This document shows positions 22,539 through 57,343 of a stretch of DNA of 64,000 nucleotides, piece after piece. The stretch covers positions 268,714 to 332,713 of the forward strand of contig CAVYNI010000004.1 of the NCBI GenBank assembly GCA_963769815.1, written 5' to 3'. Under the pieces are notes generated by a model. The model saw only the letters and a list, made by a program, of their open reading frames with translations. It had not been told where the DNA came from and did no database searches. Numbering within the stretch: the stretch's first letter is position 1; each line of letters begins with the position of its first letter. Source of the stretch: an uncultured Gammaproteobacteria bacterium (GTDB lineage: Bacteria > Pseudomonadota > Gammaproteobacteria > Steroidobacterales > Steroidobacteraceae). Both the position numbers and the translations under genes were made by a program.

Positions 22539-22571
22539 TATGCCACCAGGGCAGGCCGAAAGTTCTATTTC

Positions 22572-22586: not shown

Positions 22587-22754
22587 TTTTTCAGACAGCG
22601 CGCCGCCCAAGAAGGTCCCCGCGGACGCGTGCGGCGGATCGGCTCGGGGGCGCCGGCCGGGTGGCGCATTTGCGCAAGTGCTTGTCGCTATTAGCGTCTT
22701 GTTTGCGTGGGCGCTCGCTACACTGCGGTGCGCATTCGCAGTCGGGGATCGTCA

Positions 22755-25211: not shown

Positions 25212-25241
25212 CCGGGTCACGCTGACCGAGGCCCCACCGTC

Positions 25242-29804: not shown

Positions 29805-30363
29805 ACCCGCCCTGCGCCAGCCGCCGATCATCGCCGAGACCGATTGGCTGAACACCTTGCCGCCGGCGGCCCGCTGGGTGCTGCACGGCGATGCCCGGGT
29901 ACGCGCCCTGGCAGCCCCCGTATGGGGCGTGGAATTTCCCGATGCGCCGTGCCGCGCGGCCCTCTCCGGAACCCGCGCAGCGCTCTGGCTCGGCCCCGAT
30001 GAGCGGTTGCTGCTCGATTTCGCCTTGCTGGATGGCAGCTCCGAGGCCGCACGCACTTTAAGCGCCGCGCTCGAGCGGGCGACCGCCGAGGCAGGACACG
30101 CGCTGGTCGACGTCAGCCACCGCCAATTCGCGCTCGAAGTGCGGGGCGCACACGCGGAAACCATTCTGCGCGGCGGCTGCCCGCTCGATTTGGACTTAAG
30201 TCAATTCCCGGTGGGCATGTGCACGCGCACCGTCTTCGCCAAGGCCGATATCACGCTCTGGCGGACGCGCGAGGATGCGTTCCACCTCGAGGTGTGGCGC
30301 TCGTTCGCCGGCTATGTCGGCGGATTGCTGCGCGAGATCGCGCGGGAGTTTTATCCCGCATAG
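29797..30363 (+). CDS. soxG: Sarcosine oxidase gamma subunit, operon 2
   Basis: 188 aa. The start overlaps the soxA stop (ATGGCTGA). It has ALWLGPDERLLL and a C-terminal DITLWRTREDAFHLEVWRSFAGYV, as in SoxG proteins. Confidence 0.85.
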   Translation: MAEPALRQPPIIAETDWLNTLPPAARWVLHGDARVRALAAPVWGVEFPDAPCRAALSGTRAALWLGPDERLLLDFALLDGSSEAARTLSAALERATAEAGHALVDVSHRQFALEVRGAHAETILRGGCPLDLDLSQFPVGMCTRTVFAKADITLWRTREDAFHLEVWRSFAGYVGGLLREIAREFYPA

Positions 30364-30405: not shown

Positions 30406-32431
30406 ATGTTGAGCAACAAAGACTCCGAGGCCTTGCGCGCGGCCTATACCGAGGCGCGGAAGATGCTGCGCCTTGGGCGAGCCGCCACGGCCGAGCGGCA
30501 GCTGCGCGCCATCCAGGCGGCCGCGCCCGGCGAGGTGCAGAGCCTGCGACTGCTCGGTGTCGCATTCCTCGACCAAGACAAGACCTCCGCGGCCGTCCAG
30601 GCGCTCGAGCACGTCGTGGTCGCGGAGCCTGCGTTCGCCGACGCGCGCGTTGATCTTGCGCGCGCTTATCGTCGCGCCGGGCAGCCTGCGCGGGCGCGCG
30701 AGGAAATACGGCACGTGCTTGATTCCCAACCGAACCACCACCGCGCGTGGCTCGCGTACGGGGATGTGCTCGCCGAGCTCGAAAAGTACCCGGATGCGCT
30801 CGTGGCCTTCGAGCGCGCGCGACTGACCGACCCGCAGCGGACACGGATCGAGGCGGCGACGGCCGCCCTCGTGGCGGACGAGCGCCGCAAACCCGAGGAG
30901 CTGTTCCGCGAGATCCTCAGTGAGGAACCGGATCATGTGGCAGCGCTTTGTGGACTTGCGGCGCTCGCCTTGAGTGCCGATCGCCCAGCCGACGCCGAGC
31001 GACTTCTGCGCCACGCATTGCGGCAGTCCGCCTATATCCCGCTCGCCTATCGGGGGCTGGGTCCCGCGTTGGTGCGACTCGGGCGCCTCAAGGAGGCGGA
31101 GGCGGCCGTGCGATATCTCGAGAAGATCGAGCCTGACAGCCCGCAAACCTGGGTTGCGATCGCCTCCGTCGCCACGCGCATGATGCGCCAGGAAGAGGCG
31201 CTTGACGCGTATGAGCGCGCGGCGCTTCTCAAGCCCGATGAGGCGGGCCTGCGCATCTCCGCCGGGCATCTGCAGAAGACCCTTGGCCGGCGCCGCGAGA
31301 GCGAGGCGTCCTACAAGGCGGCGCTCGAGGTCGATCCCGGCCGAGCGGAGGCGTGGTGGTGCCTCGCCGACCTCAAGAATTATGTCTTCAGCGACGCGGA
31401 CATCGCCGCGATGCAGCGGCAGTTGTCGAACGAGGAGCTGCAACGCTCCACCGAGGCGCAGCTGCACTTTGCGCTCGGCAAGGCGCTGGAGCAGCGCGAG
31501 GCCTACGCGCAATCCTTCGCGCACTACGCTTCGGGTAATACGTTGCGCCGTCTGGATGAGCCGTTCGACATCGAGGTCTTCGAGCGCCGCTGTGCACGCA
31601 TCAGGGCGTTCTTCGACGCCGACTTCTTCGCAGCGCATCGCGGCGCGCCACCCGAGTCCCGCGCCGATCTTCATCGTCGGCTTGCCTCGCTCCGGCTCGA
31701 CGCTGCTCGAGCAGATCCTCGCCAGCCACTCGCAGGTGCAAGGCACCATGGAGCTGCCGAACATCCTCAACATGGTGGCGCAGTTCGACGACCTGACCCC
31801 CGGCCGTGACGGCTATCCCGAGACGGTCAGCCGCGCATCCTTCGCGCAGCTCGCCGCGCTCGGCGACCGCTATCTCGAGGAGACCGCGCCGCTGCGCTCG
31901 GGACGTCCGCACTTCACCGACAAGCTGCCCAACAATTTCAGCCATATCGGCCTGATACACACGATCCTGCCAAATGCCACCCTCATCGACGCGCGCCGGC
32001 ACCCGATGGATGCGTGCTTCAGCGCCTTCAAGCAGCACTTTGCCGAAGGACAGACCTTCAGCTACGACTTGACAGACCTAGGTCTCTATTACCGCTGCTA
32101 CCTGTCTCTTATGGACCACTGGGACACCGTGTTGCCGGGCAAGGTGCTGCGAGTGCAATACGAGGCACTGGTACGTGAGCCGGAGGCGCAAATTCGCCGC
32201 CTGCTGGCGCACTGCGGCCTCGCTTTCGAGCCCGCCTGTCTGAATTTTCACGCCACGCGCCGCGCGGTGCGCACGGCGAGCGCCGAGCAGGTTCGCCAGC
32301 CGTTGTACAGCTCGGGGGTCGACTATTGGCGCCATTTCGAGCGCGAGCTCGAGCCCCTGCGTCGCGCGCTCGGTGACTGCTTGGGGCGTTTCGCGGAGCC
32401 GTCGGCCGAGACGGTACTGAACGGGCGTTGA
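30406..32431 (+). pseudogene. TPR-repeat / sulfotransferase protein (copy 2); one frame break near 31659
   Basis: The TPR part lies in ORF 30406..31809 up to ...FFAAHRGAPPES. The sulfotransferase part lies in the frame of ORF 31202..32431 (APIFIVGLPRSGSTLLEQILASHSQVQGTMELPNI...). It is colinear with copy 1. The break is at a short C run (gagtcccgcg). Confidence 0.8.
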
Positions 32432-32519
32432 CTAACGGCCGTCACAGCGACGATCATCACGCAGGTCGTCCGTAGGTGCGACCGAATCAATAAATAGCAT
32501 CAATCGAGAGGGATAGTCC

Positions 32520-34961
32520 ATGGGGTCGAAGCCAAAGCTACGGGCGAGCAGGGTAAATGGTGTCCCGGTGGGAGGCTCGCGCCTCCGGTTTGCCGTTGCC
32601 GCGGCGCTGGCCGGCGCCGCACTCCCACACGCGTTGCCGAGCTTCGCCCAGGTGGCACCTGGAGCGTCCGAGCCGTCCGCATCCGGCGGCCTCGCGGAAA
32701 TCGTAGTCACGGCGCGCAAGGTCGCGGAGAACCTGCAGGAAGTTCCCATCAGTATCGACGTCTTCACTGCGAAGGACATGAAAAACCTCGGCATCGCCAG
32801 CATGGACGACTACTTGCAGAAGACGCCGTCCATCTCGTACATCAGCACAGGTCCCGGCACCCAGCTGTTCGTGATGCGCGGGGTGTCCGACGGCAGCAAC
32901 CCCAACTATCCGAACACCGCCTCGACGGGCTTCTTCGTCGATGACCTGTCGATGAACTACGAGCGGTGGCGCAGCCCGACCTGCATCTCTACGACATCGA
33001 GCGCATCGAGGTGCTGAACGGACCACAGGGCACGACCTACGGCGCGGCCGCCATGTCCGGTGCGATTCGCTACATCACCAACAAGCCGGACCTGCACGCC
33101 TTCAGCGCCGGCGTCGACACCGACGTCGGCCGTATCCAGTCCGCCGCGCACCAATCAGACCTACGAGGCGTTCGTCAACATTCCGCTGATCGACGGCGTC
33201 CTGGGCTTCAGGGCATCGGCCTTCAGTGTCTCCAACGGCGGCTTCATCAACAACCAGTTGACGACACGCACCTGGGTCAACGGTGCCGTGTCGAACAATG
33301 CGGAGTGGGCGGGCCACGACTACAACCATGAGAACGTCAAGGGCGGCCGCCTGGCGCTCAAGGCGCAGTTCGGCGAGGACTGGAACGCGCTGCTCACCTA
33401 TGGCTTCCAGCAACAGCACACCAACGGTGCGTGGGACGAGGATCCGACCCTGGCGCCGCGCACCGTGGCGCGCTTCGGCCCGGAGCAGAACCTGTTCGAG
33501 ACCAACATGGTCGATTTCCACCTCGATGGCGATGTCGGCATCGGCGATCTGGTGTTCGCCAGCGCGTTCTGGAACCAGGAACGGCGGCAGTGGAACGAAT
33601 ATTCCGAATACGAGCAGAACTACAACGGGGGCACCCAGGAAGGCTTTACCTGCCTGAACGACCCCTATTACGGAGGCGGCCCCTTCACGGGCTGCAACCC
33701 GGCGACGCAGTTCTACTCGTACAACGTCAATCCGCAGCGCTGGTCGAACGAGCTGCGCCTCTCGTCCAAGGTGGGCGGACGATTCCATTGGCTCGTGGGC
33801 GGATATTGGCAGGTCACCAACGATCACAACTACAGCAATACGTACTACATGCCCGGGCTGCAATACAAGGGTGCGGCGTTCCAGTACGAGCTCAACGCCT
33901 ATCATCTTACTCAGGCTTCGCTGCCGCCCGGTGTCTGGTACACCTACACCGAGACCAGCCACGACCTCGAGACCAGCGAATTCGCCAACATCAGTTTCGA
34001 CGTGACCGACAAGCTGAATGTGGAAGCGGGCGCCGTCTACTTCCACTCCTATTCGAACTTACGACACGCCGGTATTGGGCTTTGCCTACGCGCCCAACAC
34101 GCCGAGCGACTTCAGCGAGACCTCGCACAAGACGGACGGCAAGGCCGGCGTCAACTACAAAATCACCGATCACGTGCTGGCCTACGCCGATTGGGCGCAG
34201 GGCTTCCGGCCGGGTGGCAGCAATTCCGGATTACCTTCCGGTTGCTACAGCAATGGCGTGACCCAAACCTATACTCCGGACACGCTCAATAACTACGAGG
34301 TTGGCTGGAAGACGACCAGCCAGGGCGGGCGCCTGCTTGTGGAACGGCGCGGCCTACTACATGGACTGGAAAAATCTGCAGGCGCTCATCTATGACGCCG
34401 CGGTCTGTCCCACTTCGAGCTACAACATCAACGTCGGCGACGCGCGCATCTACGGCATGGAATCGAACGTCGACTACAAGATCGACGAGCACTTGACGCT
34501 CCAGGCATCGGTCAACTATACCGACGCCCGCGTAACATCCGCATCCACGGCCGCCTACGACAGTTACGTCAATGAACGGCTGCCGTTTGCGCCGTACTTC
34601 AGCTGGAGCTGGAACGGCGCGCTACCAGAGACACGTCGCCAGCGACCTGCAGGGCTACCTGCAGTTCGATATGGCGGACAAGGGCGACATGTTCAACGGC
34701 CTCAATCCGGACGACAAGAACACGGGATTGCCGCGCATTCTGCAGCCCTCGTACATCATCATGAACCTGCGCATGGGGGTCAACCCCGTCGGTGAGGCTT
34801 GGTTTGCGGAGTTCTACGTCACCAATCTCGCGAACAAGAACGCGATCGTTTACAGCAATACCGGCAACTTCGACCTGCGGCTCACCACCAACGAGCCGCG
34901 CGTCTTCGGCGTGAGGTTGTCCTATCGCTGGGGCAAGGCGACGGCCAACAACACCGAATGA
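32520..34961 (+). pseudogene. TonB-dependent receptor (copy 2); about 5 frame breaks (near 32967, 33145, 34057, 34338, 34622)
   Basis: Signal peptide and plug (EIVVTARKVAENLQEVPISIDVF...), then AQPDLHLYDIERIEVLNGPQGTTYGAAAMSGAIRYITNKP / TNQTYEAFVNIPLIDG... (about 300 codons) / YDTPVLGFAYAP...GFRPGGSN...NNYEVGWK / WNGAAYYMDWKNLQALIYD... / RYQRHVASDLQGYLQF...FGVRLSYRW... stop. It is spread over six listed ORFs and is colinear with copy 1. Confidence 0.8.
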
Positions 34962-34986
34962 ACGCGGCCGGGCAAGCGCCGAGCGT

Positions 34987-38376: not shown

Positions 38377-39435
38377 TCACGCGAGCTCGCGGATCTCCCG
38401 CAGAAAATCCTCCACGTCCGCCTCGGTGGTGGCATACGACGTCACGAGCCGGACCGCCGCGCCTTCGGGGACTTCGCAGAGCGGCCAGCGATAGAAATGA
38501 AAGCCCGCCTTCTCGAGACGCTCGATCAGCTTATCCGGCAGCGCGACGAATAGCTCGTTCGCCTCGACGCTCTGCAGCAGACGCGCGGCACCGATATCCG
38601 CCAGACCTCGAGCGAGCCGCGCGGCCATTGCATTCGCCTGCCTCGCATTGCGCAGCCACAGGCCATCCTCGAGGTAAGCGAGGAGTTGGCAGCTCAGGTA
38701 ACGCAGCTTCGACCACAGATGCCCCGCCTGCTTGCGCCGTCGCTCGAAGTCCCCGGCGAGCGAGCGATCGAAGAATACGACCGCCTCCGCGCATAGCGCA
38801 CCGTTCTTCGAGGCGCCGAGCGAGAGCACGTCCACGCCGCGCTTCCAAGTCGCTTCCGCCGGCGTGCAATCGAGGCTCGCCAGCGCATTCGCAAAGCGTG
38901 CGCCGTCCATATGCACGTGCAGCCCATGCTGCTTCGCTGCGGCCGTGAGCGCCGACAGCTCCTCGAGCCCGTAGACGGTCCCGAACTCGGTCGCCTGCGT
39001 CACGCTGAGCGCCGAAGGGCGCACATGATGCACGCCCATCTCCTCGGCGAACGCAACGGCTGCGGCGAGCGCCTGCGGGGCGACCTTGCCCGTCGGCGAG
39101 GGCAACCCGAGCAGCTTTGCGCCGCCGGTGTAGAACTCCGGCGCGCCGCACTCGTCGGTCACGATGTGCGCGGTGGCATGACAATAGATGCCGCCGTACG
39201 GGGGCACGATCTGCGACAAGGCGAGCGCGTTGGCCGCCGTGCCGGTCGACACGGGGTAGATCAAGACCTCCGTCTCGAATACGGCGGACGCCACCTGGGT
39301 CAAGCGCTCGGTAAAGGGATCGGCGCCGTAGGATCCGGAGGGAGCCGCGTTCGCCGCTTGAATCGCGGACATGATGGGCGCGCAGACCGGAGACACATTG
39401 TCGCTGCCGAAGTTACGAGTCAACGGGTCTGCCAT
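38377..39435 (-). CDS. PLP-dependent low-specificity threonine aldolase (beta-eliminating lyase family)
   Basis: 352 aa. NFGSDNVSPV N-terminus, STGTAANALAL, HVHMDGARFANA, and the PLP-lysine block VLSLGASKNG. Confidence 0.85.
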   Translation of the reverse strand: MADPLTRNFGSDNVSPVCAPIMSAIQAANAAPSGSYGADPFTERLTQVASAVFETEVLIYPVSTGTAANALALSQIVPPYGGIYCHATAHIVTDECGAPEFYTGGAKLLGLPSPTGKVAPQALAAAVAFAEEMGVHHVRPSALSVTQATEFGTVYGLEELSALTAAAKQHGLHVHMDGARFANALASLDCTPAEATWKRGVDVLSLGASKNGALCAEAVVFFDRSLAGDFERRRKQAGHLWSKLRYLSCQLLAYLEDGLWLRNARQANAMAARLARGLADIGAARLLQSVEANELFVALPDKLIERLEKAGFHFYRWPLCEVPEGAAVRLVTSYATTEADVEDFLREIRELA

Positions 39436-39438
39436 CGT

Positions 39439-40590
39439 TCACCTCGCCGCGCGTAGCACCCGCAGCTTGCTTTCGAAGTCTTCCTTGTTCAAATAGGCAC
39501 CGCACAGCCGGCGATAGCCGCGGTATGCACGCCGCCCATGGAGCAGCCGCCAGTTATCGAACAGCAGCGCCGTGCCGGGCGCCAGGCGCATCATGATTTC
39601 GTTCGCGGGATCATTGACCATGCGATTGAATATCTTCAGTGCCCGGTAAAAGGCGCTCATCCTTGCGCTCGGCAAGCTGAACGGAGCCCGATCGTAGTTA
39701 TTGTAGGCGATCTGAATCGGATCGCCATGCGTATCGAGCTCGATGATGGGGTGCTCGGCCCGCAGATGCACCCCGTCGCCCAAGTATTGCGCCGGCACTT
39801 TGACGCTCGAGAGAACCTCGAACGCTTGCGGATCGCTTCGGCGGATGTCGTCGGCCACTTTGAATCCGTCCACCAAGGTGCTGTCGCCGCCCTCGCCGTC
39901 GAACTGCAGGCAATGAAACATCTGAAATCCGGGCGAATCAAAGCTGTAGGTGCCATCGGTGTGAGGGCCGATGGCCGCAGACGTATACGCCGTGTCCTTG
40001 AAGGCGAGATTGGCGGTGAAATCCCACATCCCGCCGAATATCGTCTCGCGTACATAGCCGATGCGCGTGGCGAGCTCGCGAGTCGCCTCGAGAGTTGCGG
40101 GAACGCCGGTCGCCAGCGCGAAGCCGTACTCTTCCACGAGCGTGAGCCAGCGCGAGAGCGGCGCATCCCCGGACATGATCTCCTCGTGTGTCATGGCCGG
40201 GAAAGCCTCGCCGAGAGTCCGCCGGTTCCAGAGCGAGCGGCGCGGTGCCGGCGGCTGCCGCCGGCGTTGCGCGACATCCCACAGAAACGAGGCAGGCCAG
40301 ACGCTCGCGCTGCCATCGTGCTTCCAGACGATGCGCAAGGTGGCTCCGCCCTCCTCGACAGCCAGCCGTTCCGGTGCGATATCCGCCGGGATCTCGAAGG
40401 TGTCGACCTGCCGCTGCAGCGTGTCCGGATGGAGGCTGTCGCGCGAATGACAATGATCGCGCAGCCAGAACGGGGAGAATCGCTCGGCCGAGGGATATCC
40501 CCGCCACGACACCTCCACATCTCCCTCGATGACCTGAGCACCCGCCAGAAGTGCCGCACCCGAAATCTCGCGTTGTGTCGCCTTCATCAT
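39439..40590 (-). CDS. Fe(II)/2-oxoglutarate dioxygenase of the gamma-butyrobetaine hydroxylase / trimethyllysine hydroxylase (BBOX/TMLH) family
   Basis: DUF971-like N-terminus (FSPFWLRDHCHSRDSLHPDTLQR). TauD-type core with HxD in IGPHTDGTY and a distal His in NWRLLHGRRAY. The start is set at ATG 40590 (GGAGA 5-6 nt upstream) rather than the TTG at 40623. The stop is 3 nt from the aldolase ATG. Confidence 0.85.
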   Translation of the reverse strand: MMKATQREISGAALLAGAQVIEGDVEVSWRGYPSAERFSPFWLRDHCHSRDSLHPDTLQRQVDTFEIPADIAPERLAVEEGGATLRIVWKHDGSASVWPASFLWDVAQRRRQPPAPRRSLWNRRTLGEAFPAMTHEEIMSGDAPLSRWLTLVEEYGFALATGVPATLEATRELATRIGYVRETIFGGMWDFTANLAFKDTAYTSAAIGPHTDGTYSFDSPGFQMFHCLQFDGEGGDSTLVDGFKVADDIRRSDPQAFEVLSSVKVPAQYLGDGVHLRAEHPIIELDTHGDPIQIAYNNYDRAPFSLPSARMSAFYRALKIFNRMVNDPANEIMMRLAPGTALLFDNWRLLHGRRAYRGYRRLCGAYLNKEDFESKLRVLRAAR

Positions 40591-40671
40591 TTGCCGTCTC
40601 CGGATCCATCGCTTGTTGAACAAGTGTATAACAACGCCGGATGCAGGGTCAAACCGCGGCGCAGAGGTCGG

Positions 40672-41787
40672 TCAGGATGCCGGATCGGTCAGGCGGATCA
40701 CCTCGATATCGAGCGCCTTCAGCGCATCGAGGTAGCTCTGCAGATCGATCAAGTCGAGGCAAGGCCGTGCACCCCTCGCCGTGATGCGGCCGTTCGCCAA
40801 TCCCTTGGCCAGCAGGATGGACGGAATGCAAGGAATGAAGGGACCATGGCCCGATCCCGCCAGCATGAAGAATCGCTCGGTGCGGGGCATCCCGTCGCGG
40901 TCGAGCCCGGACAGACACATGTGAAAGCCGCTGCGGTTCGACCCGAATCGGTCGAGCAACGAAGCGAGCGACAGCAGGCGCGGCGCGAATCGACCCGGCA
41001 TCGACAGCATTCTCAGCCGGACCTGCCAGCTGAGAAGCCAGAGCCCGATATGCAGAACGGACAATTCCGTGCCGGCGGAAAACCGGAGCGTTTTGAGGTC
41101 CGGGTATCTGCCCGGAAAGAGCTCAAGATCCGGAATGTCGCAGTAGCCGAACCATCGCCGGCCGAGCCGCGGATAGCGCTGGGCGTGCAGACCCTGCCAG
41201 CCGTACACGATCCGCTCGCGACCCTCTTGCAGCGATTTGAAGGGCTTGCCGACATAGCTCAGGATCGCGGTGAGCGTTGCCGGGCCGCCATTCGTCCGCT
41301 GCGCGGCGCTGATGCCATAGTCGATCTTTTGCAGAGACTGGAATTTTTCCCGGTAGTGATCGATGACGGCGGCGCTCAGACAGGGCACCGAGCTCGCGCC
41401 GCTGACGATGAGCACATCGCGATCACGGGCCTCTCGATCGTACCGTTCGATGCCGGCGACGAAGCCTCGCGCATCGGCGAGGTCGATGTAATGGCAGCCC
41501 TGCTGCAGGCAAGCCTCCGCCACCGCGTAGCTCTGGCCTTGAAAGGGACCGGTGGTGTGCACGACGATGTCCGGGCTCGTCTCGGCGAGCACCGTCCGCA
41601 GATTCGTGCCGATGTCGAGCGCGACCGGCAACGCCTCGCGGTTGCCCGGGAGTTGTGCGATGAATCGCTGCGCTTTATCGAGGGAGCGTCCGGCAATACG
41701 CAGCTGGATGCCGGGATCGGAGGCGAGCGAGCGGGCGATGTGTCCGCCGAAATTCCCGTAGCCGCCGATGATCAGAACGCGTTTCAC
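40672..41787 (-). CDS. Saccharopine-dehydrogenase-like NAD(P)-binding protein
   Basis: GTG 41787 (VKRVLIIGGYGNFGGHIARSL Rossmann fold), with AAGG upstream. 371 aa. The remainder of ORF 40672..42057 overlaps betA and was rejected. Confidence 0.8.
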   Translation of the reverse strand: MKRVLIIGGYGNFGGHIARSLASDPGIQLRIAGRSLDKAQRFIAQLPGNREALPVALDIGTNLRTVLAETSPDIVVHTTGPFQGQSYAVAEACLQQGCHYIDLADARGFVAGIERYDREARDRDVLIVSGASSVPCLSAAVIDHYREKFQSLQKIDYGISAAQRTNGGPATLTAILSYVGKPFKSLQEGRERIVYGWQGLHAQRYPRLGRRWFGYCDIPDLELFPGRYPDLKTLRFSAGTELSVLHIGLWLLSWQVRLRMLSMPGRFAPRLLSLASLLDRFGSNRSGFHMCLSGLDRDGMPRTERFFMLAGSGHGPFIPCIPSILLAKGLANGRITARGARPCLDLIDLQSYLDALKALDIEVIRLTDPAS

Positions 41788-41807: not shown

Positions 41808-43469
41808 TCAGCGCTGCGCGCTTTGCCAGCGGGCGGCGCGATGGAAAGGCGCATCGTCCGCGGGCAGCATTCCGCGGCCCAGGATGTGATCGGCGGCTTT
41901 CTCGGCGAGCATGATGGTGGGCGCGTTGAGGTTGCCGGTGGTGATCGAGGGCATGATGGAGGAATCGACCACACGCAGGCCCTCGAGGCCGCGGACGCGG
42001 GCCTGGGGGTCCACCACCGCCATCCGGTCGCCGGGCGCCCCCATTTTGCACGAGCACGACGGGTGATACGCGCTTTCCGCCTTGGCACGCACGAAGGCAT
42101 CGATCTGCTCATCGGTTTGCACCCCCGATCCGGGCTGCAGCTCGCGGCCGCGGTAGCGATCGAAGGCCGGCTGCGCAAAGATCTCCCGGGTCAGCCGCAC
42201 GCAGGCCCGCATCTCGGTCCGGTCATCGGGCGCGCTCAAGTAGTTGAACAGGATCTTGGGCTTCTCGAACGGATCTTTCGAGGCAAGCCGCACCCAGCCG
42301 CGGCTCTTCGAGCGCATGGGGCCGACGTGCGCTTGAAACCCATGTTCCTGCGCGAGCGTCGAGCCGTCGTACGCAACGGCCATCGGCAGGAAGTGATATT
42401 GGATGTCCGGATATTCGACTCCGGGGCGGCTGCGGATGAAGCCGCAGGTCTCGAAGTGATTGGTCGCCCCGAGGCCGTCCTTGCGCAGGATCCAGCGCGC
42501 ACCGATGAGCGCCCGGCTCCAGGGGTTGATCGAGGAATACAGCGTGATCGGCTCCGTGCAGGCGACCTGAAAGTAAAATTCCAAATGGTCCTGAAGATTC
42601 TCGCCGACGCCCGGCAGATCCTGCACGACCTCGATGCCGAGCCCCTGCAGCTCGGCGCCAGGCCCGACGCCCGACAGCTTGAGCAGCTGCGGCGAGTTGA
42701 TCGGGCCGCCGCAGAGGATCAGCTCCTGGTCGATGCGCACCTGATGGGTTTTTCCGCCTTGGATGTAGCAGAGCCCGTGAGCGCGCCGCCCTTCGAACAG
42801 CACGCGAGTCGCCAAGGCGCCGGTGATCACCTTCAAGTTCGGCCGGCGCATCGCCGGATGCAGATAGGCGCGGGCCGCGCTCCAGCGTCGGCCCTCCCCG
42901 ACCGTCATGTCCATGCGGCCGAATCCCTCCTGCTGGAAACCGTTGACGTCACTCGTGCGCGGATAGCCCGCCTGCTCGCCCGCGGCGAGCCAAGCCGCAT
43001 GCAGCGGGTTGCGTAATGCACCGTAGCTCGTCATCAAAGGGCCGGAGGCGCCGCGGTACTGATCGCCCCCCTCCTCGCGACGCTCGGCGCGTTTGAAGTA
43101 AGGCAATACGTCGCGGTACGCCCACCCCGTCGCTCCTTCCTGTGCCCAGCGCTCGAAATCCTGCGGGTTCCCGCGAATGTAGACGAGCCCGTTGATGGAC
43201 GAGGAGCCGCCCAGCACCTTGCCGCGCGGCGTGTGCATGCGCCGGCCGTCCAGATGCGGCTCGGGCTCGGTATGGTAGAACCAGTTGTACTTCGGCATGT
43301 TCATCGGAATGGACAGCGCCGAGGGCATCTGAATATAGATCGACCCGTCCGCCCCGCCATACTCGATCAAGAGGACGCGGTGGGCGCCGCTCGCGCTCAG
43401 CCGGTCCGCCAGCACGCACCCTGCCGAGCCCGCCCCGACGATGACGTAGTCGAAATTTGGTTCCGCCAA
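41808..43469 (-). CDS. betA: Choline dehydrogenase
   Basis: 553 aa. MAEPNFDYVIVGAGSAGCVLADRLS, GKVLGGSSSINGLVYIRG, and C-terminal YHPSCSCKMG and VVDSSIMP. It lies next to betB/betI. Confidence 0.9.
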   Translation of the reverse strand: MAEPNFDYVIVGAGSAGCVLADRLSASGAHRVLLIEYGGADGSIYIQMPSALSIPMNMPKYNWFYHTEPEPHLDGRRMHTPRGKVLGGSSSINGLVYIRGNPQDFERWAQEGATGWAYRDVLPYFKRAERREEGGDQYRGASGPLMTSYGALRNPLHAAWLAAGEQAGYPRTSDVNGFQQEGFGRMDMTVGEGRRWSAARAYLHPAMRRPNLKVITGALATRVLFEGRRAHGLCYIQGGKTHQVRIDQELILCGGPINSPQLLKLSGVGPGAELQGLGIEVVQDLPGVGENLQDHLEFYFQVACTEPITLYSSINPWSRALIGARWILRKDGLGATNHFETCGFIRSRPGVEYPDIQYHFLPMAVAYDGSTLAQEHGFQAHVGPMRSKSRGWVRLASKDPFEKPKILFNYLSAPDDRTEMRACVRLTREIFAQPAFDRYRGRELQPGSGVQTDEQIDAFVRAKAESAYHPSCSCKMGAPGDRMAVVDPQARVRGLEGLRVVDSSIMPSITTGNLNAPTIMLAEKAADHILGRGMLPADDAPFHRAARWQSAQR

Positions 43470-43481
43470 GATGAGCTCCGG

Positions 43482-44941
43482 TCAATAAGGGGCGTCGACA
43501 TCGCCCATCGCGACGTAGACGCTTTTCAGCTGCGTGTAATGCTCGATGGCCGCGCGCCCATTCTCGCGCCCGAGACCCGACATCTTCACGCCCCCGAACG
43601 GCAGCTCGATCGGAGTGACGTTGTAGTGGTTGATCCAGCAGGTGCCCGCCTGCAGCTGCGCGATGACGCGATGCCCGCGGGTGAGATCGTTGGTGAATAC
43701 CCCCGCGGCAAGACCGAACTCGGTGGCGTTCGCGCGCTCGATGACCTCGGCCTCGGTCTTGAACGTGAGCAGCGACATGACCGGCCCGAATATCTCCTCG
43801 CGCACGATGGACATCGTGTCGCTGCAGCCATCGAACACGGTCGGCGCGACAAAGTATCCCTTCGCGAGCTCCCCGTCCGTGACGCGATGGCCGCCGACGA
43901 GCACGCGCGCACCTTCGGCACGGCCGCGTGCGATGTAGCCGAGCACCTTCTGCATGTGCTGTTCCGAAACCAGCGGTCCAACCTGAGTTTGCGGATCCAT
44001 CGGGTCACCGATGCGCATGGCGCTCACGCGCCTGAGGAGCCGCTCGAGGAACGCCGGTTTGATCGACTCGTGCACGAACACGCGCGTGGCGTTCGAGCAT
44101 ACCTGTCCGGAGGAGTAGAAATTGGCGAGCAGCGCACCCGATACGGCATTGTCGAGGTGGGCATCTTCGAAGACGATCAGCGGCGATTTGCCGCCGAGCT
44201 CGAGCGTCACGTTCTTGAGCGTCGCGGCCGCATCGCTCATGACGGCCTTTCCGGTTCCCACCTCACCGGTGAGCGAGACCTTGCGGATGTCCGGATGGCG
44301 CGTCAGCAATTGGCCGGTTTCCGCGAAGCCCTGCACCACCTGGAACACGCCCGGCGGCAGTCCGGCCTCGAGCAGAATCTGCTCGAGCTTCACGGCGCTG
44401 AACGGCGTGAGCTCGGCGGGCTTGAAGATCATGGCATTGCCGCAGGCGAGCGCGGGCGCCGCCTTCCAGCAGGCGATCTGCAGCGGATAGTTCCACGCGC
44501 CGATGCCCGCGACCACGCCGAGGGGCTCGCGGCGCGTATAGCCGAAGGCCTGCTTGCCGAGGTCGATGTGCTCGCCGCTCAAGGATTGCGCGAGGCTCGC
44601 GAAGTACTCGAAGCAGTCCGCCCCGGAGATGACGTCGACGACCAGCGTCTCCTGAACCGGCTTGCCGGTGTCTCGCGACTCGAGCTCGGCGAGCTCGCGG
44701 TTGCGGGAGCGCAGAATCTGCGCGGCCTGGCGCAAGATGCGGGCGCGCTCGGCTCCGCTCATCGCCGCCCAGCGAGCCTGGCCGCGCTGCGCATCGCGCA
44801 CGGCAGCATTGACCTCCGCGGCACCCGCGACGTTGACGTAGCCGAGCACCGCACCGGTGGCCGGATTGATGGACGCGAAACGCTGCTGCGCACCCGCTCG
44901 GGCACTCGCGGATGCACGGGCCTTGTCTGACTTGAGCTCAT
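43482..44941 (-). CDS. betB: Betaine aldehyde dehydrogenase portion of the continuous 695-codon ORF 43482..45569
   Basis: ...[13 protein letters not shown]...[13 protein letters not shown]...DTGKP...FKPAELTP...[10 protein letters not shown]...CSNATRVFV...EEIFGPV...[14 protein letters not shown] candidate ATG at 44941 lies 25 codons before INPATG but is in a different frame from the downstream body. Confidence 0.85.
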
Positions 44942-45569
44942 CCTCGGAGCCGATGCGCCCCGCATTCAGGCGCCGGTCGACGAACTCGGTCAAGAGCGCA
45001 CGAGCGCTCGCGCTATCGGCCTCGCGCCAGCCCGACAGCGCGGCCCGCAACCACACCCCGTCGATCATCGCGGCAATCATGGCCGCGAGACTCTGCGACT
45101 CCTCGCGCGGCACGAGCTTTTTGAGCGAGCTCTTGAGGTTGCTGAGGGTGCGGCGCTGATACACCGACTGCACGCGCCTCAAGCTCTTCACCTGCAGCAC
45201 CTGGCCCCAGAACGCGAGCCACGCCGTGCCGGTGCGCTGATCGAATTCCTCCGGCGCCAGGTTGGCATCGATGATCGCCTGGATGCGGGCGCGCGGCGTG
45301 CTGATCGTCTTCAGGCGCGCGCGCACCTGGTCGCTCACGCGCCGCGCGAGCGAGCGGAAAGCGGCGTCCAGCAGCCCGTCCTTGTCGCCGAAGTAATGGG
45401 CGACCAATCCGGGCGAGACACCGGCGCGGCCGGCAATCTGCGCGAGCGTCGTGCCCACATAGCCGACTTCGGCTAGGCTATCGATCGTGACTTCGATGAG
45501 CTGGGACCGTCGCGACTCCTCCGGGAGCTCCCCGGGCAGATCCACCGACCCCGTTGATTGGTTGTTCAA
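44938..45569 (-). CDS. betI: TetR-family repressor BetI portion of the same continuous ORF
   Basis: [32 protein letters not shown] and the C-terminal block [12 protein letters not shown]. No in-frame stop exists. An out-of-frame TGA at 44940..44938 overlaps the candidate betB ATG (ATGA), just downstream of a G4 run at 44958..44961. Confidence 0.75.
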
Positions 45570-45681: not shown

Positions 45682-46777
45682 GTGAGCGCTGACCACAGCC
45701 CGTTGAACAGTCATTCAAAGTCACCTCGCACGAGCTCATCATGCCGCCCGCCGGCGCAGCGGGTCAAGCCTCGGTATGGGCTGACCTGGGTCGCGGCCGT
45801 CGCCGCGTCCCTTGCCGCCGCCCTCGCCGCGCCGGCAGTTCCAGCGCACGCGGCGGACGCCCCGGCTACGACCGCCGACCCGGCCGCTTGCCGCACGGTG
45901 CGGTTCTCCGATGTGGGCTGGACCGACGTGACCTCGACCACGGCGCTGACGGCGCAGCTCCTGCGGCGCATCGGCTACACGCCCACCATCACGGTGCTTT
46001 CGGTGCCGGTCACGTTCGCCTCCCTGAAGAACAAGGACATCGACGTATTCCTGGGCAACTGGATGCCCGCCGAGGCCGCCGATCGCGCACCCTATGACGC
46101 CGACGGCTCGGTCGTGGTGGTGGGCCCGAACCTGTTCGGTGCGAAATACACGCTCGCCGTACCCCGGTATCTCTACGAGGAGGGTCTCAAGGATTTCAGC
46201 GACATCCATCGCTTTGCGGACCGGCTCAACCATTCTATCTACGGCATCGAGCCGGGCAACGATGGAAACCGCCTGGTGCTCAAGATGCTGAAGGAGAATC
46301 AATTCGGCCTGGGCGATTTCAAGCTGATCGAATCGAGCGAGCAAGGCATGCTGGCCCAGGTCGACCGCGCCTATCGCGACAGGCAGCCGATCGTGTTCCT
46401 GGCGTGGGAGCCGCATCCCATGAACATGCGCTTCGACATCAAGTATCTCGCCGGCGGCGATGCCGTGTTCGGCGCGAACTTCGGAGGCGCCACCGTTTAT
46501 ACCAATACCCGCAAGGGCTACTCGAGCGAATGCCCGAACGTCGGCCGGCTGCTCGCGAACCTCAAATTCAACCTGCGCGGCGAGAGCGAGATGATGGCGG
46601 CGATACTCGATCGGCACGAGCAACCCGCCATCGCCGCCGATACATGGCTGAACGCGCATCGCGACGTGGTCAAGGGCTGGCTCGAGGGCGTGCGCTCCTT
46701 CGACGGACGTCCCGCCTATGCGGCGCTCGCGGGCGTCTCGCAGCACCGCGCCGCCGGCTTCGAGGACTGGGTGGTGA
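45682..46777 (+). CDS. Periplasmic choline/glycine-betaine-binding protein (OpuAC/ChoX-like) portion of the continuous 637-codon ORF 45682..47595
   Basis: Signal-like GLTWVAAVAASLAAALAAPAVPAHA, then VRFSDVGWTDVTSTTALTAQLL...DVFLGNWMP...IVFLAWEPHPMN. No in-frame stop exists. An out-of-frame TGA at 46775..46777 overlaps an in-frame GTG at 46774 (GTGA). Confidence 0.7.
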
Positions 46778-47595
46778 GCCACAAGATTCCGGTGGGCGAT
46801 GCCATGACGGTCGCGATCGACACCGTGAAGGCGCACGGCACCCTGCTGTTCGACGGGATCTCGATCGTCATCCGCGGCACGGTCGACGGTGTGACGGCGC
46901 TGCTGCGCGCATTGCCCTCGCCCTTGCTGATTGCGCTCGTCGCCGCGCTCGCCTGGATCTTGCGCCGCTCCTGGTCTCTCACGGTATTCGTGGTGCTCGC
47001 CCTGCTCTTCATCTTGAATCAAGGCTACTGGGACGCGACCCTCGAGACGCTCTCGCTGGTGGTGGTCGCGACCGTGGCCTCGGCGCTGATCGGCGTCCCG
47101 TTGGGGATCGCCTCGGCGCACCGCCCGCGGCTGTACGCGGCGATGCGCCCGGTGCTCGACCTGATGCAGACCTTGCCGACGTTCGTCTATCTGATCCCCA
47201 CCTTGGTGTTGTTCGGGCTGGGCGTCGTTCCGGGGCTCATCTCGACCGTCATATTCGCGTTGCCCGCTCCCATCCGTCTCACCCATCTCGGGATCTCCTC
47301 GGTGCCGCGGCCGCTGATCGAGGCGGGAGAGGCATTCGGAGCGACCCCCATGCAGCTCCTCTGGAAGGTCGAGCTGCCGAGCGCGGCGGGCACCATCATT
47401 GCCGGCATCACCCAATGCATCATGCTCAGCCTGTCGATGGTCGTGATCGCGGCGCTGGTCGGCGCCGGCGGACTCGGGGTCCCGGTGGTGCGCGCGCTCA
47501 ACTCCGTGCAGGTGGGCATGGGCTTCGAGGCGGGCTTCACCATCGTGCTGCTCGCCATCATTCTCGATCGAATCAGCCGCCCGAAAGAGCACTAG
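46774..47595 (+). CDS. ABC transporter permease (ChoW/ProW-like) portion of the same ORF
   Basis: VSHKIPVGDAMTVAIDTVKAHG..., as in ChoW/CbcW N-termini (…KIPLG…). It carries the EAA-type loop region LDLMQTLPTFVYLIPTLVLFGLGVVPGLISTVIFALPAPIRLT. Confidence 0.8.
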   Translation: MSHKIPVGDAMTVAIDTVKAHGTLLFDGISIVIRGTVDGVTALLRALPSPLLIALVAALAWILRRSWSLTVFVVLALLFILNQGYWDATLETLSLVVVATVASALIGVPLGIASAHRPRLYAAMRPVLDLMQTLPTFVYLIPTLVLFGLGVVPGLISTVIFALPAPIRLTHLGISSVPRPLIEAGEAFGATPMQLLWKVELPSAAGTIIAGITQCIMLSLSMVVIAALVGAGGLGVPVVRALNSVQVGMGFEAGFTIVLLAIILDRISRPKEH

Positions 47596-47603
47596 GAAAC
47601 CCG

Positions 47604-48807
47604 ATGAGCGCAGCGGTGGAGTTTCAAGACGTCGACATTCTGTTCCCGCGCGGGCCGGGACGCAGCGGCCGGACGGCCCTGCGCGAGGCGCTTTCGGCCC
47701 TCGACGGCGGTGCGAGCCGGGCCGATATTCAAAGCAAGTACGGCGTGATCGTGGGTGTCGCGGGCGCCACTTTGAGCGTCGCACAGGGCGAGATCTCCGT
47801 GCTCATGGGATTGTCGGGATCGGGCAAGTCGACACTGCTGCGCGCCGCCAATGGGCTGAACCGCGTGACCCGAGGTCATGTGCGCATTCGCGACGGCGAA
47901 TCGGATGTGGACGTGGCGACCTGCGACACGGCGCAACTGCGCCGGGTGCGCCGCGAGCGCGTCGCCATGGTATTTCAGCAATTCGGGCTGCTCCCCTGGC
48001 GCACGGTCCGCGACAACGTCGGGTTGGGGCTCGAGCTGCGCGGCGAGCCGGCGGCGACCCGCAAAAGCATCGTCGCCGAGAAGCTCGAGCTGGTGGGCCT
48101 CTCGCAATGGGCCGACCGCCACGTGAGCGAGCTCTCGGGCGGCATGCAGCAGCGCGTCGGTCTTGCGCGCGCTTTCGCCACCGATGCCGATATTCTGCTG
48201 ATGGACGAGCCCTTTTCCGCGCTCGATCCGCTGATCCGCGGCAAGCTCCAGGGCGAGCTCCTGGCGCTGCAGGAACGAGTCAAGAAGACCATCCTGTTCG
48301 TGAGCCACGACCTTGATGAGGCCCTGCGTCTCGGCGATCGGATCTCGATTCTGCAGAACGGGCGGATCATCCAGACCGGAACGGCGGAGGACATCGTGCT
48401 CGCGCCGGCGGACGATTATGTCGCGGAGTTCGTCCGTCATATGAACCCGCTCGACGTGCTGACCGGCAGCATGATCATGTGCGAGCGGGCGCGCATGAGC
48501 GCGGAGGACGGCAGCCTTTGGCTCGACCCGCGGCGACGCTACCGTCTGTCCGTGGGCGGCACCGGCGAGGCGCTCGCCCTGCACCTCGATGGGGTCGAGC
48601 AGACCTTGCGCCACCTGCGCGACGAGGCCGGGCTCGCCGCCCTCGAGCCCGGGCCTTGCGGTGGTGCCGGCGTCGTTTTCCCTGCAATCCATCATCCGGC
48701 TGCGCCAGCTCACCGGCCACCCGGTACTGCTCGCCGATGAGGGCAGGATCGTCGGGGTGTGCGATGAGGCCGAGATCATCCGCGCGCTCGCAGGCAGCCG
48801 CCACTAA
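47604..48807 (+). pseudogene. ABC transporter ATP-binding protein (ProV/ChoV-like with CBS-type C-terminal region); frame break near 48652
   Basis: ATG 47604. Walker A GLSGSGKST, signature LSGGMQQRVGLARA, Walker B ILLMDEPFSALD. After ...RDEAGLAALEPG the sense moves to the frame of ORF 48589..48807 (LAVVPASFSLQSIIRLRQLTGHPVLLADEGRIVGVCDEAEIIRALAGSRH stop). Confidence 0.8.
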
Positions 48808-48887
48808 GCGGGCGCAGGCCGCAACACCCGGGTAGCCGCCGCCTGCCTCCCCCCGATCCACGGCGCAGTTGCCGGCGCGCGTTTTAA

Positions 48888-48908
48888 ATATTATCATCGA
48901 GATAATAT
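48888..48908. promoter_or_regulatory. Perfect 8-bp inverted repeat ATATTATC-N5-GATAATAT in an AT-rich patch 35 nt upstream of the BKACE start
   Basis: Read directly (ttttaaATATTATCatcgaGATAATATaaacc). It is the only AT-rich patch in this intergenic region. It is a candidate operator overlapping a -10-like element. Confidence 0.4.
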
Positions 48909-48942
48909 AAACCGACTCCCGCTCCGTCACGAGGCACCCGCC

Positions 48943-49849
48943 ATGGCCATGAATCACGACGTCATCATCTCCTGCGCCGTCACCGGCGACGATACCAAGG
49001 TCACCAAGAGCCCGTACTGCGCCATTACCCCGGAGCAGATCGCGGCGACGGCGATCGAAGCCGCCCAGGCAGGCGCAGCCATCGTTCACATTCATGTGCG
49101 CAATCCGGAGACGGGCGCATTCAGCATGGAAACCAAGTACTACCGCGAGGTGGTCAAGCGCATTCGGGAAAGCAACGTCGATGTGCTGGTGAATCTCACG
49201 TGCGGCATGGGCGGGTACATCGTCATCGGCGAGCACGGCCTGAAAGATACGCCTGCGCCGGGCAGCGATTTCGTCACCCAGGAAGAGCGCATGCGGCACA
49301 TCATCGACCTGTGCCACGAGGGCAAGTACCGTCCCGACATCGCGACCCTCGACTGCGGAAGCTTGAACTTCGGCGACTCGCAACCGTGCGTACATTTCCA
49401 CGCCGAACTATCTGCGCCAGGGAACCGCGATCGCCCGCGACCTGAAGGTCAAGCCGGAGCTCGAGATATTCGACACCGGCAACTTGTGGTTCGTGAAGCA
49501 GATGATCAAGGAGGGCCTGCTCGATGCTCCCGCGCTGATTCAGCTCTGCATGGGCATCCCGTACGGCGTTCCCGCCGATGTGGGCCATTTGATCGCGATG
49601 GTCAACGAGCTGCCCGAGAACTGCAACTGGGGCAGCTTCGCCATCAGCCGCATGCAGATGCCCTGGGTCGCGCAATCGGTGCTCCTCGGCGGCAACGTGC
49701 GCGTCGGCCTCGAGGACAACCTGTATTTGAGCAAAGGCGTCTATGCGAGCAATGCCCAGCTGGTGCAGAAGGCCCGCACCATCGTCGAGGCCATGGGGGC
49801 GCGCATTCTCACCCCGGCGCAGGCCCGCGAGCGCCTGAAGCTTCATTGA
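48943..49849 (+). pseudogene. Beta-keto acid cleavage enzyme (BKACE/DUF849; 3-dehydrocarnitine-cleavage-type); frame break near 49381
   Basis: MAMNHDVIISCAVTGD...AAIVHIHVRNPETG...LDCGSLNFGDS / NRAYISTPNYLRQGTAIARDLKVKPELEIFDTGNLWFVKQ...NVRVGLEDNLYLSKG...RERLKLH stop. The second half lies in the frame of ORF 49484..49849. Confidence 0.8.
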
Positions 49850-49858
49850 GAAGATCCG

Positions 49859-50335
49859 GTGACCGCGCTGCCGCCCTATCGAGCGACCATCGAATCCGAT
49901 TGGATCGATTACAACGGCCATCTGCGGGATGCGTTTTATTGCGTGGTGATGAGCTACGCCATCGATGACGTCATGGAGCATCTCGGACTCGATGCCGCGT
50001 ACCGCGAGCGCACCCACTGCACGCTCTACACGGTCGAGCTGCACATGCATTACCTGCACGAGATCAAGGGCTCCGATGAGCTCTCCGTCGTGACCTCGAT
50101 CGTGAATGCGGACCGCAAGCGCATCCACGCGGCCTGCGATTTTCTGTGCCCTGGAATCGAGGGCCCCGCGGCAACGGCCGAGGTCATGCTGTTGCATGTG
50201 CATCAGGGCGAGAAACCGAGCGTCGTTTCCTTCCCGCCGGAGATCGCCGCACGCCTCGAGGCGTTGAGGCTCTCGCCCGAGACCCTCGAGAAGCGTGGAC
50301 CGGGCTCCCGCAAGATCGAGCTCAAGCCGCGATAG
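49859..50335 (+). CDS. Hotdog-fold (4HBT-type) thioesterase, betainyl-CoA-thioesterase-like
   Basis: 158 aa. IDYNGHLRDAFY motif. It lies immediately after the BKACE gene, as in carnitine catabolic operons. Confidence 0.75.
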   Translation: MTALPPYRATIESDWIDYNGHLRDAFYCVVMSYAIDDVMEHLGLDAAYRERTHCTLYTVELHMHYLHEIKGSDELSVVTSIVNADRKRIHAACDFLCPGIEGPAATAEVMLLHVHQGEKPSVVSFPPEIAARLEALRLSPETLEKRGPGSRKIELKPR

Positions 50336-50340
50336 ACACC

Positions 50341-52420: not shown

Positions 52421-52438
52421 CACCAGAAGAGGTCCGCC

Positions 52439-57342: not shown

Positions 57343-57343
57343 G

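Follow-up and report, generated by a model that had tools for sequence, protein, structure and literature searches.

Gene organization of the locus

The 64-kb stretch of DNA analysed here (the window; contig CAVYNI010000004.1 of assembly GCA_963769815.1, positions 268,714 to 332,713) comes from an uncultured member of the Steroidobacteraceae. Downstream of its choline dehydrogenase gene betA it carries an Fe(II)/2-oxoglutarate dioxygenase gene followed by a pyridoxal 5'-phosphate (PLP) aldolase gene, a pair that may form a bacterial module acting on N6,N6,N6-trimethyl-L-lysine (TML). An open reading frame (ORF) check confirmed the three intact genes on one strand, the minus strand, that a first-pass annotation of the same DNA had placed after betA. 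The betA gene (41808-43469, minus strand; TIGR01810, 814 bits) is followed by a saccharopine-dehydrogenase-like (SDH-like) NAD(P)-binding oxidoreductase gene with a GTG start (40672-41787, minus strand, 371 aa; PF03435). Next come the dioxygenase, resembling trimethyllysine hydroxylase (TMLH) (39439-40590 in an ORF of 39439-40623, minus strand, 383 aa; ORF and NCBIfam), and the PLP aldolase of the L-threonine-aldolase family, a proposed 3-hydroxy-trimethyllysine aldolase (38377-39435, minus strand, 352 aa; ORF and Pfam). The GTG start of the SDH-like gene lies 20 nt past the betA stop, and the gene ends 81 nt before the dioxygenase. On the other side of betA is an in-frame betI-betB fusion (43482-45569, minus strand, 695 aa), with Pfam TetR_N, TetR_C_6 and Aldedh matches in one ORF.

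The dioxygenase most likely starts at the ATG at 40590, giving 383 aa, because public gene calls use this ATG, GGAG sits 7-10 nt upstream of it, and the TTG at 40623 is within the predicted -10 hexamer. The dioxygenase stop and the aldolase ATG are exactly 3 nt apart (TGA ACG ATG), as had been read earlier, and GAGG is found within the 3' end of the dioxygenase gene just upstream of the aldolase ATG. All three proteins are 100% identical on two independent ENA assemblies (metagenome contigs of 540-590 kb) and on one Logan contig. Since the genes are identical and intact in independent assemblies, they are not assembly artefacts. The window differs from two contigs of the same strain (L001 and L002) by 10-28 indels per 21 kb, and the three genes are intact in all copies. 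For comparison, we scanned a single genome for each GTDB species and assembled 80 related loci with dioxygenases 48-87% identical to that of the window. Its nearest relatives belong to the Steroidobacteraceae or are uncultured gammaproteobacterial metagenome-assembled genomes (MAGs) from soil and peat.

The dioxygenase is related to trimethyllysine hydroxylase

The dioxygenase matched Pfam TauD (155 bits) and the GBBH-like_N/DUF971 domain (27.6 bits, cut-off 22.8), the latter in agreement with the DUF971-like N-terminus of the first-pass annotation. Among the equivalog models for TMLH, gamma-butyrobetaine hydroxylase (BBOX) and TmpA, it scored above the curated cut-off only for trimethyllysine dioxygenase (TIGR02410, EC 1.14.11.8; 327.6 bits vs a cut-off of 268.3), and it failed both the BBOX model (TIGR02409; 275.3 vs 414.75 bits) and the TmpA model (NF049936; 276.5 vs 400 bits). 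It is because of this outcome, with TIGR02410 passed and TmpA and BBOX failed, that close homologues are already labelled 'trimethyllysine dioxygenase' by the JGI and NCBI pipelines. The best solved-structure matches in a PDB search with the dioxygenase were TmpA (6npb, 189 bits) and human BBOX (162 bits), and no TMLH structure exists there for comparison.

Active-site residues were compared in an alignment of vertebrate TMLH, fungal TMLH representatives, BBOX, TmpA and 79 bacterial homologues. The human TMLHE query sequence was validated by a search in which it returned named vertebrate TMLH proteins. All residues that mutagenesis has identified as important in human TMLH (PMC7764450) have equivalents in the dioxygenase, the first cage residue being Phe for Tyr. 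The Fe triad H210/D212/H351 (GPHTDG ... LLHGRR), which is the 2-His-1-carboxylate motif recognized earlier, corresponds to human H242/D244/H389, and the 2-oxoglutarate arginines R353/R360 correspond to human R391/R398; triad and arginines are invariant in the 79 bacterial homologues. D199 aligns with human TMLH D231, thought to bind the alpha-ammonium of TML (PMC7764450), and the position is Asn in BBOX (N191) and TmpA (N193). Further, N297 is the equivalent of human N334, and the aromatic cage F185/W189/Y202 that of human Y217/W221/Y234, where the change from Tyr to Phe is conservative and fixed in the bacterial clade. The motifs KDTAYT, HTDGTY, YNNYDRAP and GYRRLCGAYL are common to animal and fungal TMLH and differ from those of BBOX and TmpA. 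At the zinc site, C47 is the sole survivor of the three BBOX cysteines (DHCHSRDS vs DNCPCSDC in BBOX and DHCRSASC in TMLH), in accordance with the single cysteine counted at first reading, and the fourth zinc ligand of BBOX and TMLH, a His, is absent as well.

The dioxygenase is 38-41% identical to fungal TMLH, its nearest named homologues, and 35-39% to vertebrate TMLH, 35% to TmpA and 33% to BBOX. A midpoint-rooted neighbour-joining tree had a star-like backbone that left the deep branching unresolved, and quartet bootstraps were therefore used. These grouped the dioxygenase with TMLH against BBOX and TmpA in 83-87% of replicates. Fungal and vertebrate TMLH nevertheless paired with each other and left the dioxygenase outside in 96-100% of quartets, and the bacterial clade is probably a sister lineage of eukaryotic TMLH rather than a recent transfer. 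The equivalog score, the Asp231 equivalent, the motifs and the quartets support the view, proposed in the first-pass annotation, that the dioxygenase is TMLH-like rather than BBOX-like.

The aldolase

The aldolase matched Pfam PF01212 (Beta_elim_lyase, 171.5 bits) and aligned over its full length, at ~55% identity, with solved L-threonine/phenylserine aldolases (7yvr, 346 bits; 1v72, 333 bits; 5vye, 299 bits). Its PLP-lysine motif GASKNG aligns with the GA(S/T)KNG of 7yvr and 1v72, and the PLP lysine K210 is invariant in 17 dioxygenase-linked orthologues. Because it missed both NCBIfam cut-offs, for LtaE (51 vs 312 bits) and for GntG (76 vs 230 bits), it belongs to a different subfamily from these two. 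By similarity, we assign it to the Pseudomonas-type L-threonine/phenylserine aldolase family, distant from the E. coli LtaE and Tha1 type. E. coli threonine aldolase (eTA) and mouse Tha1 cleave 3-hydroxy-TML efficiently (PMC11016064). This published activity of other threonine aldolases, together with the conserved pairing described below, makes the enzyme a candidate 3-hydroxy-TML aldolase.

Pairing of dioxygenase and aldolase across genomes

In 25 of the 78 usable loci, an aldolase gene is found no more than 1.5 kb from the dioxygenase. In 23 of these it follows the dioxygenase immediately and in the same orientation, and in two distant loci (~50% identity) it is divergent; the spacing from dioxygenase stop to aldolase start ranges from -30 to +46 nt, with a median of ~4. 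The flanks of the pair vary widely, with at least 10 different upstream neighbours (betA, a PotF-like substrate-binding protein (SBP), a TAP-like hydrolase, an HlyD-family gene and a kinase among them) and at least nine different downstream neighbours, including a Na/Ca exchanger and a glutaryl-CoA-dehydrogenase-like gene. Linkage to bet genes was seen in ~10 of the 25 aldolase-linked loci. Clustering of ~1150 ORFs from the 80 loci revealed no third conserved gene beyond the pair; the PotF-like SBP, Na/Ca exchanger, glutaryl-CoA-dehydrogenase-like, MacAB-type efflux and kinase genes are each lineage-specific.

In the dioxygenase tree, the aldolase-linked genes form the clade of the window's own gene (at least 69% identity). 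The reciprocal test used 80 aldolase homologues from metagenomes, counting those loci with enough upstream sequence. Dioxygenase-linked aldolases formed one subclade, in which 25 of 29 (86%) were linked to a dioxygenase, vs 0 of 19 outside it. These observations support a genetic coupling of the dioxygenase to a beta-hydroxy-alpha-amino-acid aldolase across many genomes and contexts.

One aldolase locus (L094, 1776-5202) keeps the PotF-like SBP, aldolase and Na/Ca exchanger context, with 85 nt and no dioxygenase between SBP and aldolase, an apparent loss of the hydroxylase with the aldolase retained. Beside the dioxygenases that lack an aldolase, no serine hydroxymethyltransferase (SHMT) or similar aldolase was found; the neighbours there are genes for MFS transporters, M28 and S8 peptidases, a hydantoinase and an AMP-ligase.

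Neighbourhoods of two further kinds were seen. In one lineage (L021-L023 and L032, ~4.8-9.9 kb), a TAP-like alpha/beta hydrolase, which is secreted, an aminopeptidase P (M24) and an MttB-superfamily methyltransferase (761 bits to PF06253) are encoded divergently from the pair, and this peptidase and MttB context fits a protein-derived quaternary amine. In Dongiaceae and other Alphaproteobacteria (L055, L057, L063, L065 and L066, ~8-14 kb), dioxygenases 50-57% identical to that of the window have the TMLH-type Asp and no aldolase. Their neighbours are a divergent BetI-like TetR gene, a BetB-like aldehyde dehydrogenase, an Fe-alcohol dehydrogenase, a cupin and a sarcosine-oxidase-like alpha/beta/gamma set, and these loci may represent another, uncharacterised betaine pathway. 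At other distant loci, the place of these neighbours is taken by an M20 amidohydrolase or an M24 creatinase-like peptidase. Dongia, Kiloniella and Leisingera carry the dioxygenase without the aldolase.

Promoter and operator

The 81-nt spacer before the dioxygenase holds a sigma-70-like promoter of the dioxygenase-aldolase pair, TTGACC-18-TACACT (40623-40652, minus strand; consensus scan and alignment). It also holds a 22-bp imperfect palindrome, TTGTTATACACTTGTTCAACAA (40613-40634, minus strand; position weight matrix (PWM) and alignment), which overlaps the -10 and is a putative BetI/TetR-family operator. The TTGAC of the -35 and the -10 are conserved among nine aligned loci with different upstream genes, and the promoter/operator block is kept where the upstream genes are unrelated. 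The operator is unique in the window (PWM score of 40.7 vs a shuffle maximum of 11), where no further copies were found, the bet promoter included. With up to five mismatches and within 140 nt upstream of the dioxygenase, it occurs in 42 of the 80 loci, among them Alphaproteobacteria; the alphaproteobacterial Dongiaceae have a cleaner palindrome, TTATTATACA-NN-TGTACAACAA. In addition, the dioxygenase of ~22 distant loci has a BetI-like TetR gene beside it, often divergent, whose product shares 34% identity with the window's BetI domain; a Dongiaceae example is L057 9243-9881.

The bet promoter has a palindrome of its own, TTGAAC(A/G)GTCATTCAA, at ~45703-45718 between betI-betB and the OpuAC-permease gene. 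It precedes betI-betB in every bet-carrying relative, differs from the dioxygenase operator, and is presumably the BetI box. These patterns suggest that the pair is transcribed as a unit of its own under the control of a repressor, for which a BetI-family protein would be a candidate. The position of the genes after betA, from which the first-pass annotation had drawn an operon, is correct; however, because the pair has its own conserved promoter and operator, it need not belong to the bet transcript. An Rfam scan of the whole window gave no match to RNA elements.

The saccharopine-dehydrogenase-like gene

The SDH-like protein has a single Pfam domain, the N-terminal Sacchrp_dh_NADP (PF03435, residues 4-104, 53 bits); the C-terminal saccharopine-dehydrogenase domain had no Pfam match, and the protein matched no NCBIfam equivalog. 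Its best PDB relatives are carboxyspermidine and saccharopine dehydrogenases, the best being a carboxyspermidine dehydrogenase at E=1.8e-4. In a tblastn search of the 80 related loci, the gene adjoined the dioxygenase only in contigs of this strain (L001-L003); the other match was an unrelated one of 37%, 3.5 kb from a non-aldolase locus. An 87%-identical relative has no SDH-like gene, and its betA is followed directly by the dioxygenase promoter and, after ~145 nt, by the dioxygenase. The family has more than 5000 members, the closest homologue being 70% identical. DUF2269 is the usual partner of the family: in the neighbourhoods of three homologues, two overlap a DUF2269 membrane-protein gene and the third precedes a DCC1-like gene, and no lysine or quaternary-amine/betaine genes stand beside any of the three.

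The gene sits between the betA stop and the pair's own promoter. It encodes an uncharacterised oxidoreductase, and is best read as a recent insertion, specific to this strain, that plays no part in the module. The assignment as a saccharopine or lysine-pathway dehydrogenase was rejected, given the missing C-terminal domain, the weak PDB similarity, the lack of an equivalog and the lack of any conserved association. The same observations lend no support to the earlier suggestion that a lysine-type dehydrogenase marks a lysine-derived substrate. The conservation of the neighbourhood across genomes, proposed in the first-pass annotation as a check on a three-gene operon, is borne out for the dioxygenase-aldolase pair and not for the trio, which exists in this strain alone.

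Catabolic surroundings

The window is a quaternary-amine catabolic island, spanning 13442-30363 and 45682-53215. It encodes a Rieske GbcA-like oxygenase (17763-19013), a DJ-1/AraC GbdR-like regulator (within 19902-22610), a GCV_T-domain protein (23568-25211), two heterotetrameric sarcosine-oxidase sets and an OpuAC-permease fusion ABC system. On the plus strand, context genes for BKACE, a 4HBT thioesterase, an ADP-forming acyl-CoA ligase and an enoyl-CoA hydratase (48943-53215) form a possible gamma-butyrobetaine/carnitine module; it would be incomplete, and BKACE is frameshifted in this assembly. No carnitine (3-hydroxyacyl-CoA) dehydrogenase or acyl-CoA dehydrogenase was detected in the window, and tblastn found no BBOX/TMLH paralogues in it. 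The earlier claim that plausible downstream enzymes are all present in the window thus holds for BKACE, the thioesterase, the CoA ligase and the enoyl-CoA hydratase, and fails for the two dehydrogenases.

A BetB-type aldehyde dehydrogenase is nearby, as stated at first reading. The betI-betB ORF scored 782 bits against the betaine aldehyde dehydrogenase (BADH) equivalog PRK13252 (cut-off 593), and its BetB domain scored 572 bits to the human 4-trimethylaminobutyraldehyde dehydrogenase ALDH9A1 (6vr6/6qak), nearly as high as the 593-604 bits to bacterial BADHs. The BetB domain is therefore a candidate dehydrogenase for an aldehyde released by the aldolase.

The betI-betB fusion is in frame and free of stops in nine other species-level genomes, with a variable, low-complexity linker of 25-45 aa. 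The fusion of a repressor to an enzyme of its own operon is unusual.

Several genes of the window are split into several ORFs here, namely BKACE (48943-49968), a TonB-dependent receptor (32520-34961), a soxB-like gene (25433-26506) and an ABC ATPase (~47600-48800). All are whole in the 99.7%-identical ENA contig L002, and the indels that split them are probably assembly errors rather than pseudogenes.

Proposed pathway and alternative explanations

The functional unit would consist of two genes, the dioxygenase first and the aldolase second, under a promoter and a repressor operator of their own. The comparisons above establish the families of both enzymes, their active-site residues, the conserved pairing and the conserved operator; from these we infer the following substrate, products, reaction order and direction, and fate of the aldehyde. 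The dioxygenase would hydroxylate C3 of free TML, and the translationally coupled PLP aldolase would split the resulting 3-hydroxy-TML into glycine and 4-trimethylaminobutyraldehyde. In this lineage, the BetB domain encoded just upstream would probably oxidise the aldehyde to gamma-butyrobetaine, which would then enter the carnitine, glycine betaine and sarcosine catabolic genes of the window. The role would be catabolic, giving carbon and nitrogen from protein- or plant-derived TML, and not carnitine biosynthesis. Taken as a whole, from TML hydroxylation through the aldolase to BetB, we rate this catabolic model as having slightly better than an even chance of being correct.

Several observations weigh against it. 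Fungal and vertebrate TMLH pair to the exclusion of the bacterial clade in 96-100% of quartets, and because the bacterial clade lies outside the eukaryotic one, it may have evolved a different specificity. Most of the wider family has the diagnostic Asp (111 of 130 representatives), a residue that counts more strongly against BBOX-type binding than it does for TML. Further, human TMLH takes both shorter and longer analogues (PMC7764450), so the chain length of the substrate cannot be read from sequence. The coupling to the aldolase also has gaps, as a nested subclade of eight dioxygenases (72-75% identical) and a whole sister clade (62-68%) have no adjacent aldolase, and four aldolases of the linked subclade have no dioxygenase. 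Since carnitine dehydrogenase, acyl-CoA dehydrogenase and a BBOX paralogue are all lacking in the window, the downstream gamma-butyrobetaine route is incomplete here. Likewise, no TML transporter was identified.

Some of these points favour a different substrate, in which the same beta-hydroxylation and retro-aldol logic would act on another omega-trimethylammonio-alpha-amino acid, such as N-delta-trimethylornithine or the C4 analogue. The residues shared with TMLH set the cation cage and the amino-acid end rather than the chain length, the clade stands outside eukaryotic TMLH, and the human enzyme tolerates analogues of other lengths. The C4 analogue would release betaine aldehyde, the native substrate of BetB, and in this lineage the module comes directly after betI-betB and betA. 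Trimethylornithine lipids have been reported from peat- and soil-type habitats, and many carriers of the module are peat and soil MAGs. However, no other free amino acid of this kind is, to our knowledge, nearly as common as TML, only ~10 of the 25 aldolase-linked loci are linked to bet genes while the pair recurs in unrelated contexts, and the peptidase neighbours elsewhere fit a protein-derived substrate. We regard another substrate as unlikely, though as the most serious of the alternatives. Less probable still is that the two reactions, acting on TML, are biosynthetic and serve bacterial carnitine or gamma-butyrobetaine synthesis for osmoprotection. They are indeed the first two steps of eukaryotic carnitine biosynthesis, and the nearby bet genes also serve osmoprotection, but the window has neither a BBOX-type paralogue nor a lysine methyltransferase, and the setting is catabolic (two sarcosine oxidase sets, the Rieske GbcA-like gene, BKACE and the thioesterase). 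BetI-like repressor control would also be typical of substrate-induced catabolism.

If the dioxygenase were instead a BBOX- or TmpA-type hydroxylase, the aldolase would be a mere neighbour, a glycine/threonine enzyme. TmpA and BBOX are its best matches among solved structures, a comparison in which TMLH has no structure to offer, and the window is rich in carnitine and betaine genes. Yet the protein falls below the curated cut-offs of both families, has Asp in place of Asn191 (BBOX) or Asn193 (TmpA), is accompanied by no HD-domain TmpB partner in any neighbourhood examined, and is paired with an aldolase in many contexts at near-zero spacing, all of which makes this explanation very improbable. 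The model in which the SDH-like dehydrogenase works with dioxygenase and aldolase on a lysine-derived substrate has the least to recommend it. Its basis is the shared strand and close spacing, with gaps of 20 nt to betA and 81 nt to the dioxygenase, and a distant similarity to saccharopine and carboxyspermidine dehydrogenases. The gene is, however, at the locus in one strain among ~80 related loci and upstream of the module's own promoter and operator, and its family recurs in unrelated contexts, twice overlapping DUF2269, with a nearest homologue at 70% and no Pfam match for the C-terminal domain. Lack of conservation largely refutes this three-gene model, and we consider it scarcely credible beside a two-gene module for TML catabolism.

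Comparison with known systems

In the eukaryotic carnitine route, the 3-hydroxy-TML aldolase is SHMT1/2 in humans and Tha1 in mouse. The proposed module resembles the first two steps of that route in using the same hydroxylase family for step 1, with its substrate-binding Asp, aromatic cage, Asn, Fe triad and N-terminal GBBH-like domain, and, for step 2, the same chemistry by a PLP enzyme of threonine-aldolase type; a BADH/ALDH9-type dehydrogenase is also available for step 3. It differs in being bacterial, a coupled gene pair with a repressor operator, and probably catabolic. The bacterial hydroxylase clade stands outside eukaryotic TMLH, at 35-41% identity, keeps one zinc-site cysteine and has no mitochondrial targeting extension, whereas the aldolase is of the Pseudomonas L-threonine/phenylserine-aldolase subfamily and not of the Tha1/LtaE or SHMT type. 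Within that subfamily (7yvr, 9l9g, 1v72, 5vye), it has ~55% identity, the PLP-lysine motifs and kinship with broad-specificity beta-hydroxy-alpha-amino-acid aldolases in common with the known enzymes, but it belongs to a distinct subclade that is 86% dioxygenase-linked.

TmpA and TmpB of Leisingera caerulea, a BBOX-like hydroxylase and an HD-domain oxygenase, degrade 2-(trimethylammonio)ethylphosphonate. TmpA, like the present dioxygenase, is a bacterial member of this hydroxylase family, long misannotated, and it provides the best solved-structure match (6npb). TmpA hydroxylates a trimethylammonium compound and thereby prepares it for cleavage by a second enzyme, as the present dioxygenase would do. 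In the present pair the second gene encodes a PLP aldolase and not an HD-domain oxygenase, and the dioxygenase has Asp at TmpA Asn193 and a score of 276 bits against the TmpA cut-off of 400. With human BBOX (3ms5/3o2g), the dioxygenase shares the fold, the Fe/2-oxoglutarate chemistry, the aromatic cage for trimethylammonium and the N-terminal domain; it differs by Asp for Asn191, HTDGTY for HTDYPA, YNNYDRA for FNNATRD, and the loss of two of the three zinc cysteines.

Similarities also exist with BetI-regulated betIBA operons. A BetI-type TetR gene stands beside the dioxygenase in distant relatives, the dioxygenase operator has a TTCAA-type half-site in common with the bet box, and the module is immediately downstream of betI-betB and betA. 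In contrast to those operons, the operator has a sequence of its own that is confined to the dioxygenase promoter, the module has proved mobile with respect to the bet genes, and BetI is fused to BetB in this lineage.

Novelty and significance

The HTML (3-hydroxy-TML) aldolase, the second enzyme of the TML route, was identified in mammals only in 2024. Reviews and recent primary papers describe bacteria as having no trimethyllysine-to-carnitine route. Bacteria have been stated to lack carnitine biosynthesis (PMC11016064). In the full-text literature searched, subscription literature being outside its scope, there was no characterised bacterial TML hydroxylase or aldolase pathway, in agreement with the first-pass annotation, which knew of none of this composition. 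The enzymology would be that of steps 1 and 2 of eukaryotic carnitine biosynthesis; the novelty appears to lie in a form that is bacterial, operonic, under separate regulation and probably catabolic, and in the dedicated aldolase subclade. Whether this is the first prokaryotic trimethyllysine pathway, a mobile two-gene module with a co-evolved HTML aldolase and a BetI-family repressor acting on a 22-bp operator, widespread in soil and peat Steroidobacteraceae and mineralising TML via gamma-butyrobetaine and glycine betaine, we judge to be evenly balanced.

If true, the pathway would reveal how soils and peat recycle TML, a common methylated amino acid derived from proteins and plants. Further, it would provide soluble, easily expressed enzymes for 3-hydroxy-TML, gamma-butyrobetaine and carnitine precursors, an independent genetic argument that threonine-aldolase-family enzymes are natural HTML aldolases, and a new effector/operator pair for the BetI family. 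In addition, the analysis corrects the idea of a lysine-type dehydrogenase as a member of the pathway.

Other features of the window

At two places (6366-11011 and 30414-34962), a TPR-sulfotransferase gene precedes one for a TonB-dependent receptor, each time beside a sarcosine-oxidase cluster. A CoxLMS-like molybdenum hydroxylase set (large, FAD and 2Fe-2S) is encoded at 55144-61388 with a GntR regulator, a MoxR AAA ATPase and a DUF58/VWA gene, and appears unrelated to the dioxygenase-aldolase pair. A second GMC oxidoreductase, 41% identical to BetA, is encoded on the plus strand at 2506-4137, near mandelate-racemase-family and 3-hydroxyisobutyrate-dehydrogenase-like genes.

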